Positions 22,399 to 31,472 of a stretch of 64,000 bases of DNA are shown piece after piece. Numbering within the stretch: position 1 is the stretch's first letter; every line of letters begins with the position of its first letter. The translations under genes and the position numbers were made by a program. The notes beneath the pieces were generated by a model. The model was not told where the DNA came from, searched no databases, and was given only the letters and a program-made list of their open reading frames with translations. Source of the stretch: Escherichia coli (GTDB taxonomy: Bacteria; Pseudomonadota; Gammaproteobacteria; Enterobacterales; Enterobacteriaceae); assembly GCF_048403405.1 (NCBI RefSeq), contig NZ_CP183129.1; one strand, given 5' to 3'.

Positions 22399-25850
<3,452 letters not shown>

Positions 25851-25917: not shown

Positions 25918-26517
25918 ATGCGTAAAGTTTGTGCAGCCATTTTGTCCGCAGCCATCTGTCTGTCCGTATCCGGTGCGCCTGCATGGGCATCTGAACATCA
26001 GTCCACGCTGAGCGCGGGGTATCTTCATGCCTCGACGAACGTTCCCGGCAGCGATGATCTTAACGGGATTAACGTGAAATACCGTTATGAGTTTACGGAC
26101 ACACTGGGGCTGGTGACGTCATTCAGCTATGCAGGAGACAAGAATCGCCAGCTTACCCGTTACAGCAATACCCGCTGGCATGAAGATTCCGTGCGTAACC
26201 GCTGGTTCAGCGTGATGGTGGGGCCGTCTGTGCGCGTGAATGAATGGTTCAGCGCGTATGCGATGGCGGGTATGGCTTACAGCCGTGTGTCGACCTTCTC
26301 CGGGGATTATCTCCGCGTAACTGACAACAAGGGGAAAACGCACGATGTGCTGACCGGAAGTGATGACGGTCGCCACAGCAACACGTCTCTGGCGTGGGGG
26401 GCTGGCGTGCAGTTTAACCCGACCGAATCCGTGGCCATTGACCTTGCTTATGAAGGTTCCGGCAGTGGTGACTGGCGCACTGACGGTTTCATCGTGGGTG
26501 TCGGTTATAAATTCTGA
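25918..26517 (+). CDS. lom: Lom/Ail-family outer membrane protein
   Basis: 199 aa; signal peptide; beta-barrel C-terminal ...GVGYKF; own terminator; classic position after J. Confidence 0.85.
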
Positions 26518-26572: not shown

Positions 26573-26581
26573 GGAGTGGAT

Positions 26582-28987
26582 ATGGCAGCAGTAAAAATCT
26601 CAGGTGTGCTGAAAGATGGTGCGGGAAAACCAATACAGAACTGCACTATTCAACTGAAGGCAAAGCGTAACAGCACCACGGTACTGGTGAACACGGTGGC
26701 CTCTGAAAATCCGGATGAAGCCGGGCGTTACAGCATGGATGTTGAGTATGGCCAGTACAGCGTTATCCTGCTTGTTGAAGGTTTTCCGCCTTCACATGCC
26801 GGAACCATTACCGTCTATGAAGGTTCCAGACCAGGTACGCTGAATGATTTTCTCGGTGCCATGACGGAAGATGATGTCATGCCGGAGGCATTGCGTCGTT
26901 TTGAGGAAATGGTGGAAGAAGCGGCACGCAACGCCGAAGCCGCCTCTCAGAGCGCAGCGGCGGCAAAGAAATCCGAAACTGCAGCGGCATCATCAAAGAA
27001 CGCGGCGAAAACCTCAGAAACGAATGCAGCTAATAGTGCACAGGCGGCAGCGACCTCAAAGACTGCATCGGCAAACTCCGCGACAGCAGCCAAAAAATCA
27101 GAAACCAACGCGAAAAATAGCGAGACAGCCGCAAAGACGAGCGAAACCAACGCAAAGTCCAGCCAGACGGCAGCGAAAACCAGCGAAACGAATGCCAAAG
27201 CCAGTGAAACTGCGGCAAAAAACAGCCAGGTTGCAGCAGCCCAAAGCGAGAGCGCGGCAGCCGGTTCTGCGACTTCAGCAGCTGGATCAGCAACTGCTGC
27301 GGCTAACAGCCAGAAAGCTGCGAAGACGAGTGAAACTAACGCAAAGTCCAGCCAGACGGCAGCGAAGACCAGCGAAACGAATGCCAAAGCCAGTGAAACT
27401 GCGGCGAAAAGCAGTCAGGATGCAGCGGCCCAAAGCGAGAGTGCCGCAGCCAGTTCTGCAAGCGCGGCGGCTGCTTCTGCCACTGCATCAGCTAACAGTC
27501 AAAAAGCAGCAAAAACCAGTGAAACCAACGCAAAGGCGAGCGAGACTGCGGCGGCGAACTCGGCGCAAGCATCGGCAGCAAGCCAGACAGCAGCTAAAGC
27601 AAGTGAAGACGCAGCCAGAGAGTATGCAAGCCAGGCAGCGGAGCCGTATAAACAAGTTTTGCAGCCGTTGCCCGATGTGTGGATACCGTTTAATGATTCA
27701 CTGGATATGATTACGGGCTTTTCGCCATCATATAAAAAAATTGTTATTGGCGACGATGAAATAACAATGCCTGGCGACAAGATTGTAAAGTTTAAACGCG
27801 CATCGAAAGCAACTTACATTAATAAATCTGGTGTGCTGACAGAGGCTGCCATTGACGAGCCACGATTTGAACGTGATGGCCTGCTTATTGAGGGGCAAAG
27901 AACTAACCTGCTAATCAATTCAACAAATCCGACTAAATGGAACAAGTCGTCAAATATGATCTTAAGTGCATCAGGTGTAGATGATTTCGGATTCCAGTAC
28001 GCAAAATTTACATTAAAACCAGAAATGGTAGGGCAAATTTCAGCGATTAACATAGTAACCGTTTCCGGCAGTAAAGGTTTTGATGTAACAGGCGGAGAAA
28101 AGTATGTAACCATATCATGCAGGGTGCAAAGTGGCACTCCAAATTTAAGATGCCGATTACGATTTGAAAACTATGATGGTTCTACCTACACATTCTTAGG
28201 TGACGCTTACTTAAATACGACAGATTTATCTATTGATAAGACGGGTGGTGCCGCTAATCGCATTACTGCAAGGGCTGTTAAAGATGAAGCAAGCAAATGG
28301 ATCTTTTTTGAGGCGACAATTAAGGCACTTGATACAGAAAATATGATAGGTGGAATGGTTCAGTATGCCCCGGCAAAAGGAGTGGGCACTGGCGCGGATG
28401 ATTATATTTATATTGCGACCCCTCAAGTTGAAGGTGGGGCGTGCGCTTCATCGTTTATTATAACAGGCGCATCCCCTGTAACACGCGCCAGCGATATTGT
28501 AACGGTCCCCATTTCTCTAAATTGGTGCAATCCCGCTATTAGTTCATTAGCAGAAGTTAATACCAATTGGGATGAATCGCCAAACAAAGAAGGTAGCGCA
28601 CGTATTCTTAATATTTCCACTACGGGAGATACAACTGAAATTGCAGATGAAAGTTATATGTATTTGGGGTATACATCTTTGGGAGCACGCGCAATCATTA
28701 CAAATGGTAAAGGCACTAAAATAGAATATAAAAGCGTTATAGAACGACCAGAGAGAAAAAGCATTATCGGCTTTAGATTCACAGAAAGTCGAGAATTGTG
28801 TGTTGTGGTTAACGGTAATATTGGTGCTAAGGTAGTTTCTCCTTATAAAAAACACAAATATACAGGAGGCTTCATTAATATTGGTGGTCAATCATCATCC
28901 GGCAACCGTCACCTATTTGGACACGTTCGAAATCTGCGTATTTGGCACAAGGCATTGACTGATGCTCAGATGGGGGAGTCAATCTAA
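26582..28987 (+). CDS. stf: side tail fibre protein Stf with a replaced, low-GC C-terminal receptor-binding module
   Basis: N-terminus MAAVKISGVLKDGAGKPIQNCTIQLKAKRNSTT... matches recalled lambda Stf; Ala/Ser/Thr-rich repeats; C-terminal ~440 aa of lower GC with a possible lectin-like motif. Confidence 0.85.
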   Translation: MAAVKISGVLKDGAGKPIQNCTIQLKAKRNSTTVLVNTVASENPDEAGRYSMDVEYGQYSVILLVEGFPPSHAGTITVYEGSRPGTLNDFLGAMTEDDVMPEALRRFEEMVEEAARNAEAASQSAAAAKKSETAAASSKNAAKTSETNAANSAQAAATSKTASANSATAAKKSETNAKNSETAAKTSETNAKSSQTAAKTSETNAKASETAAKNSQVAAAQSESAAAGSATSAAGSATAAANSQKAAKTSETNAKSSQTAAKTSETNAKASETAAKSSQDAAAQSESAAASSASAAAASATASANSQKAAKTSETNAKASETAAANSAQASAASQTAAKASEDAAREYASQAAEPYKQVLQPLPDVWIPFNDSLDMITGFSPSYKKIVIGDDEITMPGDKIVKFKRASKATYINKSGVLTEAAIDEPRFERDGLLIEGQRTNLLINSTNPTKWNKSSNMILSASGVDDFGFQYAKFTLKPEMVGQISAINIVTVSGSKGFDVTGGEKYVTISCRVQSGTPNLRCRLRFENYDGSTYTFLGDAYLNTTDLSIDKTGGAANRITARAVKDEASKWIFFEATIKALDTENMIGGMVQYAPAKGVGTGADDYIYIATPQVEGGACASSFIITGASPVTRASDIVTVPISLNWCNPAISSLAEVNTNWDESPNKEGSARILNISTTGDTTEIADESYMYLGYTSLGARAIITNGKGTKIEYKSVIERPERKSIIGFRFTESRELCVVVNGNIGAKVVSPYKKHKYTGGFINIGGQSSSGNRHLFGHVRNLRIWHKALTDAQMGESI
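27100..27560. repeat. about 2.4 tandem copies of a 189-bp (63-codon) in-frame repeat inside stf
   Basis: cgcaaagtccagccagacggcagcgaa(a/g)accagcgaaacgaatgccaaagccagtgaaactgcggc recurs at 27151 and 27340. Confidence 0.7.
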
Positions 28988-29268
28988 TGAAAGATTTAAC
29001 ACTCAAATTTGCCGACAGGGCCGACTTTTCGGCCTTTATGGGAAGTATTGGCTATTATAATGACGAGTCGATGCAGGATGATATTCTGATTGATGTGATA
29101 GGTAACGTGTACAAAGAAACCGGAGAGCTGACTGAAGATGGCGAACCGGTATGTGTTAAGGAAGATGGATATTTTGTAAACGTGCGCATCATTAAGGATA
29201 CGCAAATATCGTCATTATTCGATGAATACGTGGTTGCTGTTGAGCATCAACTTCGTGGCTGGATGTGA
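28987..29268 (+). CDS. ORF-A: small acidic protein (93 aa), function unknown
   Basis: ATG overlaps the stf stop (TAATG); about 19 Asp/Glu versus 8 Lys/Arg; no family recognised. Confidence 0.5.
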   Translation: MKDLTLKFADRADFSAFMGSIGYYNDESMQDDILIDVIGNVYKETGELTEDGEPVCVKEDGYFVNVRIIKDTQISSLFDEYVVAVEHQLRGWM

Positions 29269-29277
29269 GGAAGAAAA

Positions 29278-30318
29278 ATGGCTACATCGACAGTAATTCC
29301 TGATGACATCAAAACGCTAAAATCCGACGTTAGCAAATTAAAAAACGATCAAGGAAGCTACGCAACAAAATTATATGTAGACAGCAAAGATGAAATCGTT
29401 GGTGACTGGTCTGCTTCATGGTATCAGCAGGTATTGCCAACTAGCGGAGCTATATTTGGGAGAAAACTCCGCTCAACTCACAGGACGGCAGGTGTTGAGG
29501 ATGCGTATTGCGAACTATACCTCAAAAAATGGATAGACAGTCCAGGTAACGCAATGGCGCGCCTTAACCTGAACGATAACGGGACAAACATTTGCTGGGA
29601 CTTTACCAACCTTTATGGCGGTACGATGATTTTTCCCGGTGACAGCGGATACCTCAAAATGGGTAACTGCCTTATGTCATACAGCAAGCGTGGAAGTAAC
29701 GCGCTTATTAAATTTGATTACACCGACACATTACAGATCAAATATGCCAATCATGGGTCAACCATGACATTAAACACACAGGGAACCGCTTATGCTGGTG
29801 TTACTGCTCAATTGTGGGGCAACTCCAGCCGTCCTGTTGTTTATGAAGTCGGTGTTGATGGTGGCGCTTATATGTTCTATGCGCAAAAAAATACCGATAA
29901 CACCTATATGTTAAGCGTTAATGGTGCATGTCATGCCACCGCATTTAACCAGCATTCCGACCGGGATCTGAAAGACAACATTCAGGTGATCGATAATGCA
30001 ACCGACCGCATCCGTAAAATGAACGGCTATACATACACGCTTAAAGAAAACGGTATGCCCTATGCTGGTGTCATTGCACAGGAAGCTCTGGAAGCAATCC
30101 CAGAAGTTGTAGGTTCCGCAATGAAATATCAGGACGGCGCAAGCGGATCGGAAGGTGAAGAAGGTGAACGTTATTACACAGTAGATTATTCTGGTGTTAC
30201 TGGCTTGCTTGTTCAGGTAGCCAGAGAGTCAGACGACAGAATAACAGCACTGGAAGAAGAAAACGCAGAATTAAGACAAAGATTATCTGCAATTGAGGCG
30301 GCGCTTGCGTCTAAATAA
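29278..30318 (+). CDS. ORF-B: fibre/tailspike-like protein (346 aa) with C-terminal intramolecular-chaperone (peptidase S74-like) domain
   Basis: RBS GGAAG; C-terminal SDRDLKDNIQ...YTYTLKENGMPYAGVIAQEALEAIPEVV...coiled-coil ITALEEENAELRQRLSAIEAAL, the pattern of autoproteolytic fibre chaperone domains; hairpin aggggccgagcgcccc after the stop. Confidence 0.6.
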   Translation: MATSTVIPDDIKTLKSDVSKLKNDQGSYATKLYVDSKDEIVGDWSASWYQQVLPTSGAIFGRKLRSTHRTAGVEDAYCELYLKKWIDSPGNAMARLNLNDNGTNICWDFTNLYGGTMIFPGDSGYLKMGNCLMSYSKRGSNALIKFDYTDTLQIKYANHGSTMTLNTQGTAYAGVTAQLWGNSSRPVVYEVGVDGGAYMFYAQKNTDNTYMLSVNGACHATAFNQHSDRDLKDNIQVIDNATDRIRKMNGYTYTLKENGMPYAGVIAQEALEAIPEVVGSAMKYQDGASGSEGEEGERYYTVDYSGVTGLLVQVARESDDRITALEEENAELRQRLSAIEAALASK

Positions 30319-30360
30319 TATCAAGGGGCCGAGCGCCCCGTTTTATTGGGTAGGATGAAA

Positions 30361-30654
30361 ATGGATATAACACCTTTCCTTCATGCGCTTTGTGCTGTGG
30401 CTGCGCAGCTACTGGTTGGTCTTTTTACCGGGAACTGGGCTTACGGGGCGATAGCCGGTTGTACGTTCTTCATTGCGCGTGAACACACCCAGGCGGAATA
30501 TCGCTGGATTGAAATGTTTGGGCATGGCAAGAGGATTAACATGCCGTGGTGGGGCGGTTTTGATCCGCGCGTGTGGGATGTGGCAAGCCTGATGGATTTT
30601 GCTGTGCCGGTGGTGGCGTGTCTGCTGGTCTGGCTGTTGGTTAATCGTGGGTGA
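30361..30654 (+). CDS. ORF-C: small membrane protein (97 aa; 2-3 predicted transmembrane segments)
   Basis: Hydrophobic stretches ALCAVAAQLLVGLF, GAIAGCTFFIA, VPVVACLLVWLLV; AGGA 5 nt upstream of ATG; start could also be 30346 or 30355. Confidence 0.5.
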   Translation: MDITPFLHALCAVAAQLLVGLFTGNWAYGAIAGCTFFIAREHTQAEYRWIEMFGHGKRINMPWWGGFDPRVWDVASLMDFAVPVVACLLVWLLVNRG

Positions 30655-30664
30655 AAAAAGGTGA

Positions 30665-30784
30665 GCTGTATATGCAACGGAGGAAGAAACCCCGTTGCTG
30701 GAAGCCTGGAAAAAGTATCGGGTGTTGCTGAACCGTGTTGATACGTCAACTGCACAGGATATTGAATGGCCAGCACTGCCGTAG
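30665..30784 (+). pseudogene. tfa: 3-prime remnant of tail-fibre assembly gene tfa (last ~36 codons only)
   Basis: Frame opening right after the ORF-C stop reads [39 protein letters not shown], matching the recalled lambda Tfa C-terminus; no start codon or N-terminal domain. Confidence 0.7.
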
Positions 30785-30881: not shown

Positions 30882-31472
30882 TTATATGTCAGGTGTCTGA
30901 AGTTTTGCTTTGGCTCTTAAAATGGTTTGCCGCGAGGTTTTGAATTCCCGGGCAATGGCACTTATACTTACACCTGACTTAATTCGTTCGAATACCACCT
31001 GTTTCTGTTCTTCATTTAACACAGGTGGTCGACCAAAACGTTTCCCTGCGCCCCGGGCTCTTACTATCCCGGAATGAGTGCGTTCAAGTAAAAGGTCTCG
31101 TTCAAATTCAGCGACTGCTGAAATTACTTGCATCATCATTTTTCCTGTTGGACTGGTCAGGTCAATGCCCCCCAATGCTAAGCAATGCACTCTGATACCT
31201 GTTTCGGTCAGTTGTTCCACTGTTTTCCTGATATCCATTGCATTACAACCAAGGCGATCCAGTTTTGTCACAATCAATTGATCACCACATTTCAGGCGAG
31301 CAAGCAACCGGTTAAAACCAGGACGCTCACTGGTTGCTGCTGAGCCGCTAATGTGTTCTTCGATTATTTGCTGAGGTTTGATTTTAAAACCTGCACTTTC
31401 GATTTCCCGGCGTTGATTTTCGGTGGTCTGATCCAGCGTTGATATCCGACAGTAAGCAAAAATTCGAGACAT
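30882..31472 (-). CDS. pinQ: serine recombinase (invertase/resolvase family), PinQ/PinR-like
   Basis: 196 aa; catalytic-region motif YCRISTLDQ; C-terminal helix-turn-helix; same position as pinQ next to tfa and ydfK in K-12 Qin. Confidence 0.75.

Follow-up and report, generated by a model that had tools for sequence, protein, structure and literature searches.

The 64,000-nucleotide stretch of Escherichia coli contig NZ_CP183129.1 (assembly GCF_048403405.1) that we analysed, here called the window, carries a prophage in which a short reading frame, ORF-A, begins on the stop codon of the side tail fibre gene stf. This raises the question of whether the ORF-A product serves the fibre, and in what capacity, or merely travels behind it. 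A preliminary description of the sequence had offered two answers, an alternative fibre chaperone in place of Tfa or an unrelated cargo gene. It did not mention a second fibre gene immediately downstream or the conserved anchor of that fibre, which raise a third possibility, a joint between the two fibres. The elements of the cassette are as follows.

26576-28987, plus strand: stf, proximal side tail fibre, 803 aa (PF08400, PHROG 1419)
27683-28984, plus strand: C-terminal module of Stf, about 430 aa, with a domain like the GTA head spike fibre, a galectin/LamG-like domain and ~30 conserved final residues
28975-28978, plus strand: GGAG Shine-Dalgarno sequence of ORF-A, within the 3' end of stf and 8 nt 5' of the ATG
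28987-29268, plus strand: ORF-A, 93 aa with a TGA stop, an acidic alpha/beta protein (PHROG 1361)
29278-30318, plus strand: distal tail fibre of 346 aa that has an intramolecular chaperone domain at its C-terminus (PHROG 4563, PF13884)
29278-29325, plus strand: N-terminal anchor of the distal fibre, 16 aa, MATSTVIPDDIKTLKS, family motif M-x-T-x-T-x-I-P-x-D-I-x-x-L-K

ORF-A is a real, conserved and constrained gene, whose link with the fibre module recurs in six or more phage groups. Its ATG (28987-28989) shares one base with the stf TAA (28985-28987), forming the TAATG of the preliminary description within the sequence ...GGGGAGTCAATCTAATGAAAGAT..., and the product is strongly acidic, as had been stated (pI 4.19, with 19 D+E against 8 K+R). 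Residues 1-93 match profile positions 1-92 of 92 of PHROG 1361, a family of unknown function, with an E value of 1.2e-44, and close copies are present in 987 of 5426 complete E. coli genomes (18%). A stop/start overlap (ATGA, GTGA or TAATG) is found in 26 of the 27 loci listed, including all those with an intact upstream fibre gene; the exception is phage 4A7, where an IS has broken that gene. In phage AKFV33 the small-gene start directly abuts the fibre stop without overlap. Most other loci have a purine-rich equivalent of the ORF-A GGAG, and no terminator was detected between stf, ORF-A and the distal fibre gene. The overlap, the Shine-Dalgarno sequence inside stf and the lack of a terminator, features conserved at all intact loci, support the earlier suggestion that ORF-A expression is coupled to stf. 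Pairwise dN/dS values for the small gene lie between 0.1 and 0.5, or 0.09-0.54 among lambdoid loci lacking a second fibre and 0.10-0.35 among loci having one, in a comparison that left out the rV5-like genes.

The identification of the upstream gene as a stf fibre gene was correct: residues 5-134 match Pfam PF08400 (phage_tail_N, E 6e-67), and the full length matches PHROG 1419, 'tail protein'. Stf consists of a lambda-Stf-like N-terminus, a repeat-rich shaft and the lectin-like C-terminal module, within which NF048003 (GTA_spike_fiber) was matched at residues 437-638 with E 1.8e-16. The sole PDB relative of the module is the RcGTA head spike fibre Rcc01080 (E 4.9e-5). BLASTP aligns Stf over ~430-670 aa, at 35-47% identity, with the ends of the phage 21, IrisVonRoten, KarlBarth and naswa fibres, and the module has hypervariable sub-regions and a conserved end. 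It occurs in 209 records of the phage collection and the small protein in a similar number, 179, to which divergent members can be added. At the intact loci retrieved the small gene always lies behind a fibre with homologous last ~430 aa, while the fibre N-termini are lineage-specific.

Loci with the fibre and the small protein are found in lambdoid, Dhillonvirus, Seuratvirus, Warwickvirus, T5-like and rV5-like phages, that is, in at least six enterobacterial phage groups. The virulent carriers (T5-like, Drexlerviridae, Queuovirinae, Dhillonvirus and rV5-like) have the small gene at the same position behind the same module. Scans with the single ORF-A protein returned relatives on 16 viral contigs only. 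The gp41 of phage rV5 represents another fibre allele, with an S74 domain at its end, so that rV5 appears to be without the module; Dhillonvirus EE09, which lacks it too, has one fibre and no small gene. Two giant proteins from the exhaustive search, P0158 and P0161, were rejected as fusions, their scores being sums of weak matches to repeated Ig-like units.

The second fibre matches PHROG 4563, 'tail fiber protein', with E 1e-220, and has a Peptidase_S74 domain (PF13884) at residues 227-278 (E 1.5e-13). Since it has this intramolecular chaperone of its own, it should not need ORF-A as a chaperone. Its gene starts 9 nt 3' of ORF-A in the window and its N-terminus reads MATSTVIPDDIKTLK; wherever a distal fibre is present, its gene invariably lies 9-12 nt 3' of the small gene. 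The first 16 residues are 56-100% identical across the distal fibres of lambdoid, T5-like, Dhillonvirus, Seuratvirus and Warwickvirus phages, and over residues 17-60 identity in the same five groups drops to background. Stop-codon read-through, fusing ORF-A to the distal fibre that follows in the same frame 9 nt away, was considered and rejected: the T5-like and Warwickvirus genes use TAA, the gap in KarlBarth is 11 nt, and the same in-frame spacing occurs before an unrelated membrane-protein gene.

Some loci have the small gene and no second fibre. In lambdoid phages of the phage 21 and ev243 types the small gene is followed by a membrane-protein gene, and in the rV5-like phage naswa by a terminator; the anchor motif is absent from the whole phage 21 genome and from positions 1-75 kb of naswa. 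Because the small gene is kept without a second fibre, and under purifying selection in two lambdoid lineages, it tracks the upstream fibre.

Comparisons of close relatives show exchange on both sides of the small gene. Between the window and EcPNK004 the fibre and small gene are retained and the distal fibre is exchanged; between the window and 2G7b the small gene and distal fibre are retained and the fibre end is exchanged, with 13-40% identity in the variable fibre region against 95% in the small protein. In the latter comparison ORF-A does not change along with the hypervariable parts of the module. The small gene itself is split in two of three close pairs, its 5' half having diverged together with the fibre end and its 3' half remaining with the distal fibre.

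The AlphaFold model of ORF-A (pLDDT 90.5, pTM 0.77) predicts a small two-layer alpha/beta fold with an open, conserved beta-sheet face (the GYFVNVR strand) and a conserved C-terminal tail, P-x-R-x-W. The tail has the lowest confidence, as is expected for a segment that becomes ordered only on a partner. A PDB fold search returned generic alpha/beta sandwiches only and no known fibre chaperone or adaptor. In BFVD and AFDB50 the only significant fold matches (E < ~1e-3) were uncharacterised phage or prophage proteins of ~90 aa, followed by weak matches to NusG (E>=0.01). Alphaproteobacterial look-alikes exist as well, for example A0A4U1JKW7 of R. capsulatus.

A close described counterpart is found in the T5-like phage IrisVonRoten (Bas32), whose gp22-gp23-gp24 have the gene order of the window. 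Its proximal fibre ends in a module homologous to that of Stf (44% identity over 675 aa by BLASTP), its small ORF overlaps the fibre gene and encodes 92 aa that are 38% identical to ORF-A, and its distal fibre gene begins after a gap of 9 nt, the product starting with the anchor found in the window and ending in an intramolecular chaperone. It differs in that the proximal N-terminus attaches to a T5-type tail via LtfC rather than to a lambda-type tail, and in that its distal fibre, a 'T-shaped' dual-RBD protein of 574 aa, has no relationship to the 346-aa fibre of the window past residue 16. This lateral fibre locus is described in the BASEL papers (PMC8594841, PMC11990801), where gp22 and gp24 are modelled and gp24 is stated to be attached to gp22; gp23 is neither modelled nor discussed. 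A more divergent version of the trio is ltpA (orf137), orf136 and ltpB (orf135) of the T5-like O157 phage AKFV33. Here the module is 35% identical, orf136, the small protein, was found by profile only (hhalign 98.7%, E 3e-16; 24% identity), and orf135 also bears the anchor motif (N-terminus MTTYTNIPQDITKLK). With its module, overlap and anchor, the window carries the same three-gene cassette. Orf137 was identified as a virion protein by mass spectrometry (PMC3326045), in a study that analysed only four large bands of a 10% gel and so did not reach the 10-kDa protein. We found no virion proteomics for members of the small-protein family in the literature, and nothing concerning this fibre type in the Eligo preprint on lambda Stf engineering.

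The branched lateral fibres LtfA and LtfB of phage DT57C, with their LtfC collar (PMC4728585, PMC10713586), are like the cassette of the window in that a second fibre is attached to the first, again in a T5-like phage, but ltfA and ltfB have no small gene separating them, and each of the two fibres has an S74 domain. LtfC is unrelated to ORF-A; an alignment of the ORF-A family with the LtfC of IrisVonRoten gave an hhalign probability of 0.2%. By analogy, the attachment of LtfA to LtfC, in which short beta-strands are donated to a small beta-rich protein, is a possible model for the distal anchor.

We lean, with modest confidence, towards ORF-A being a dedicated accessory protein, either an assembly factor or a cap, of the lectin-like C-terminal module of Stf. 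Being coupled to the stf stop, ORF-A would be made beside the emerging fibre C-terminus, probably in roughly matching amounts. It would bind the conserved scaffold of the module and not its hypervariable receptor-binding parts; once bound, it would help the fibre end to assemble, or would cap and stabilise it. In the three-gene versions the second, self-chaperoning fibre would dock at the same end through its 16-aa N-terminal anchor. That the protein binds the module and acts in assembly or as a cap is what we infer from a set of supporting observations, namely the linkage to the module, the persistence of the gene where there is no second fibre, the S74 self-chaperone of the distal fibre, the replacement of tfa, the low model confidence of the tail and the lack of co-variation with hypervariable parts. 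It may or may not stay in the virion. Several observations point the other way. The RcGTA head spike fibre, which is homologous to the module, lacks a neighbour of this kind, rcc01081-86 being capsule genes, and is functional when made recombinantly in E. coli with no helper (PMC10218006). A confident homotrimer model of the IrisVonRoten Gp22 fibre end was obtained without Gp23 (PMC11990801, S7 Table). The strongly conserved anchor, and the invariable placement of the small gene between two fibre genes, would suit a joint protein equally.

That the cassette has taken the former place of the stf end and tfa in this prophage is read from the sequence downstream, where the following elements lie.

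30325-30339, plus strand: weak terminator-like hairpin after the distal fibre gene
30346-30654, plus strand: small membrane protein with two TM segments (PHROG 1443)
30674-30781, plus strand: C-terminal remnant of Tfa, 36 residues, recognised in translation
30882-31472, minus strand: Pin-type serine invertase, pinQ-like, with no inverted repeats around the fibre genes

The equivalent of the Tfa remnant in EcPNK004 is annotated 'tail fiber assembly protein, missing N-terminus'. The proposal of a helper replacing Tfa stands in part: such a function is plausible, the cassette having taken the place of tfa and ORF-A tracking the module even where there is no second fibre, but ORF-A is unrelated to Tfa in sequence or fold. 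[quoted passage not shown] Descent of ORF-A, with much divergence, from a known family of fibre chaperones (Tfa/Caudo_TAP, T4 gp38 or gp57A) would fit the gene order, with a helper gene directly after a fibre gene. T4 gp57A is a small acidic fibre chaperone, and ORF-A is likewise small and acidic. ORF-A matched no Pfam family at E<=10, and thus not Tfa/Caudo_TAP, and no NCBIfam model at E<=0.1; together with the fold search this bears out the remark that it is not Tfa-like, and we give membership of a known family next to no credence. The cargo proposal, that ORF-A is a moron (a lysogenic-conversion, defence or anti-defence gene riding behind stf), draws on its location in the variable stretch that separates the tail genes from the end of the prophage, beside a membrane protein and an invertase, and on its lack of known domains. 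It fares badly, and we consider it very improbable, given that the gene is placed alike in lambdoid phages and in five groups of strictly virulent ones, coupled in every case to this fibre module, that it belongs to a late fibre operon without interruption and that it gave no match in PADLOC.

The rival that deserves more weight, although we think it rather unlikely, is a joint or adaptor ('knee-cap') at the proximal fibre end, which would receive the distal anchor so that interchangeable distal fibres plug on; where a phage has no distal fibre, its copy would then be a leftover or a minimal cap. The fixed spacing of the distal fibre gene agrees with this, as does the anchor shared by otherwise unrelated distal fibres, even in AKFV33 with its diverged small protein. 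So do the recombination boundaries on both sides of the small gene, its split behaviour in two of the three close pairs, and the GenBank annotation of bas32_0023 as 'tail fiber protein'. Small hinge proteins have a precedent in T4, where gp35 and gp36 are separate small proteins that join the proximal and distal half-fibres of the long tail fibre; they are much larger than ORF-A, and Pfam and PDB searches detected no similarity. Against a joint, three kinds of phage keep the gene although the sequence checked contains no fibre with the anchor, purifying selection having been measured in the two lambdoid kinds, and the family bears no resemblance to the T5 LtfC collar. An AlphaFold2 fusion of distal-fibre residues 1-50, a 30-residue linker and ORF-A, run with a paired alignment, showed no docking (pTM 0.47), with the anchor at pLDDT ~50 and lacking a beta-strand; the negative is weak, since the alignment was shallow, the stoichiometry 1:1 and the proximal fibre absent from the model. 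Still more tentatively, the small protein might be a structurally unprecedented type of fibre joint that caps the lectin-bearing end and provides a socket for a universal 16-residue anchor, in which case unrelated distal receptor-binding fibres would be exchangeable among lambdoid, T1-like, T5-like, Dhillonvirus and Seuratvirus phages.

The cassette is common, and it occurs in model and candidate therapeutic phages, among them BASEL Bas05, Bas22 and Bas32 and the O157 phages AKFV33, FFH1 and SP15, and its middle gene is labelled 'hypothetical' nearly everywhere. If ORF-A is an accessory protein of the module, it would be one unrelated in sequence or fold to Tfa, gp38 and gp57A. If the small protein is required, host-range engineering that swaps fibre ends or distal fibres would have to bring it along, and the 16-aa anchor, if it acts as proposed, would be a natural plug-in interface.

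An invertible fibre segment was considered in view of the adjacent pin gene and rejected, there being no inverted repeats of >=14 nt around the fibre genes. The PHROG 1443 membrane protein follows the cassette in lambdoid loci only and is probably not part of the fibre.

ORF-A, the small open reading frame directly 3' of stf, is a real gene. It belongs to a lambdoid prophage of E. coli that occupies the Qin-type site; ydfK, ynfT and ydfJ follow downstream, and the tail-end genes of the prophage are listed below.

Tail-end genes of the prophage
22411-25850, J
25918-26517, lom
26576-28987, stf
28987-29268, plus strand, ORF-A
29278-30318, distal fibre, 346-aa ORF
30346-30654, membrane protein, 102 aa
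30674-30781, Tfa C-terminal remnant
30882-31472, minus strand, pin-type invertase

As the preliminary description had it, ORF-A overlaps stf and is acidic: the last base of the stf stop TAA (28985-28987) is also the first of the ORF-A ATG (28987-28989), and the 93-aa product (19 acidic and 8 basic residues) has a pI of 4.19. Within stf, 8 nt 5' of the ATG, there is a GGAG, and no terminator-like site was found between stf, ORF-A and the distal fibre gene. Of 5426 complete E. coli genomes, 987 carry a close copy (at least 80% nucleotide identity), which each record listed calls a "hypothetical protein", and pairwise dN/dS in the family is about 0.1-0.5 for pairs without dS saturation. PHROG 1361 ("unknown function") matches over the full length (E 1.2e-44). 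The family is a narrow one: only 48 relatives came out of an exhaustive HMMER search through 1.84 billion cluster representatives. Searches of NCBIfam, PADLOC and PDB sequences, including one with an 18-sequence profile, gave no match, and no relative of known function was found by sequence or structure. The claim that ORF-A is not Tfa-like also held, since direct tests for the family were negative and Pfam returned nothing even at E<=10; Tfa membership is thereby ruled out, and the true Tfa remnant lies elsewhere, downstream.

Homologues were found by tblastn in 179 phage records. We fetched loci from lambdoid phages (21, 2G7b, ev243, 4A7 and many prophage contigs), Dhillonvirus KarlBarth, Seuratvirus KurtStettler, Warwickvirus BEBK14 and PeterMerian, the T5-like IrisVonRoten, AKFV33 and three UViGs, and the rV5-like naswa. 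Wherever the upstream fibre gene is intact in these loci, its stop and the start of the small ORF overlap (ATGA, GTGA or TAATG) or, in AKFV33, abut. The N-termini of these proximal fibres are lineage-specific and attach to different tails, and their last ~430 aa are homologous (35-47% identity, BLASTP). One domain of this C-terminal module is a relative of the RcGTA head-spike fibre (NF048003, E 1.8e-16; PDB 6tb9, E 4.9e-5), and the IrisVonRoten homologue ends in a galectin-like domain according to the BASEL authors (PMC11990801). With 209 phage records, the module is about as frequent as the small protein once divergent members of the latter are added; one such protein, AKFV33 orf136, is only 24% identical yet matches the family profile (hhalign 98.7%). 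In phage 4A7 (L024 1417-3833) stf is destroyed by an IS with three transposase ORFs, and the small gene and membrane-protein gene 3' of it are intact.

The second fibre gene, 9-12 nt 3' of the small ORF in most loci, encodes in the window a tail fibre (PHROG 4563, E 1e-220) with a Peptidase_S74 intramolecular chaperone domain at residues 227-278. Distal fibres share only their first ~16 residues, M-[AV]-T-x-T-x-I-P-x-D-I-x-x-L-K, and are otherwise unrelated; this stretch, a putative attachment-anchor signature, is 56-100% identical over five phage groups, and residues 17-60 are at background level. The gene family and the cassette (fibre, small gene, second fibre) are already in databases, and both fibres have been described; the small protein carries no functional assignment. 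According to BASEL II, Gp24 of IrisVonRoten is attached to Gp22, the proximal fibre; these two were modelled there, and Gp23, the ORF-A homologue, was neither modelled nor discussed (PMC11990801). The text there once calls the proximal fibre 'Gp23', whereas the legend and S7 Table give Gp22 and GenBank bas32_0023 is the 92-aa homologue; this is probably a slip, and indicates that the small gene was not considered. The AKFV33 paper likewise named ltpA and ltpB and ignored orf136 (PMC3326045).

Phages of three kinds have the small gene but no distal fibre: its next neighbour is the membrane-protein gene in phage 21-type and ev243-type loci and a terminator in naswa. The anchor motif was not found in the complete phage 21 genome or in naswa 1-75 kb, which holds its whole fibre cluster. 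The small gene is equally constrained with and without a distal fibre, dN/dS being 0.10-0.35 with one and 0.09-0.54 in the lambdoid loci without. Because the gene is kept and constrained without the distal fibre, and that fibre is self-chaperoned, the predicted obligatory partner of ORF-A is the upstream fibre module. Recombination boundaries fall on either side of the small gene and at times inside it. A comparison of the window with 2G7b gives 13-40% identity in the variable fibre region and 95% in the small protein; as ORF-A does not co-vary with the hypervariable sub-regions, its binding site, if any, would lie in the conserved scaffold and the similarly conserved final ~30 residues.

The best-supported reading, which we hold somewhat more probable than all others combined, is that ORF-A is a fibre accessory protein specific to this module. 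Through translational coupling it would be made beside the emerging fibre C-terminus, whose conserved scaffold it would bind, assisting assembly or capping the end. A strict chaperone requirement fits poorly, as the RcGTA homologue has no such neighbour and is functional as a recombinant protein from E. coli without a helper (PMC10218006), and the IrisVonRoten module was confidently modelled as a homotrimer without Gp23 (PMC11990801). The main rival, that ORF-A is a structural joint receiving the anchor of the distal fibre, would explain why otherwise unrelated distal fibres in five phage groups have that anchor in common; the phages that keep the small gene without a distal fibre count against it, and we hold it about half as probable as the accessory reading. 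We also modelled distal residues 1-50 fused through a 30-residue Gly-Ser linker to ORF-A (AlphaFold2, paired alignment of 15 loci). The anchor formed no strand and did not dock (anchor pLDDT ~50, pTM 0.47), a weak negative for the joint, given a shallow alignment, 1:1 stoichiometry and a model that lacked the proximal fibre. Both readings could be true if the cap also serves as a socket. Unrelated cargo, suggested earlier, is effectively excluded by the conserved position of the gene in virulent phages.

An AlphaFold2 model of ORF-A built from the 18-sequence alignment is confident (pLDDT 90.5, pTM 0.77), with a predicted topology of strand, two helices, four strands and a helix, then a C-terminal tail of lower confidence. 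The tail carries a conserved P-x-R-x-W motif in which R90 is invariant in that alignment; strong conservation is otherwise seen in the GYFVNVR strand. Structural look-alikes in AFDB50 include uncharacterised alphaproteobacterial proteins of ~90-110 aa (Rhizorhabdus, Ancylobacter, and Rhodobacter capsulatus A0A4U1JKW7), intriguing because the only solved relative of the module is the R. capsulatus GTA head-spike fibre.

Within the module, Stf residues ~440-530 and ~650-770 (window ~27900-28170 and ~28530-28890) form two hypervariable sub-regions, 13-50% identical between phages whose flanking parts match at 95-100%, which is consistent with two exchangeable sugar-binding domains. In J, a C-run at 25469-25472 is one base shorter than in E. 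coli EcPNK004 (CCCC vs CCCCC); this frameshift gives the ORF from 22411 a garbled end with a stop at 25632, and the true C-terminus lies in another ORF, 25569-25850. The missing base is either a sequencing error in the homopolymer or a real mutation that makes J a pseudogene and leaves the prophage unable to build a functional tail tip. The Tfa remnant adjoins the pin-type invertase and indicates that the former end of stf, together with tfa, gave way to the cassette. With no inverted repeats of at least 14 nt found on either side of the fibre genes, it appears that the new cassette took the place of the ancestral invertible stf/tfa segment. The 30346-30654 product belongs to PHROG 1443, without a significant Pfam match or a PADLOC match; every lambdoid locus has it behind the cassette (phage 21 CPT_21_24, ev243 gp25; ~95% identical), and it is not in the virulent phages. 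The phage 21 record gives its homologue two TM domains, and the gene may serve in lysogenic conversion or exclusion.
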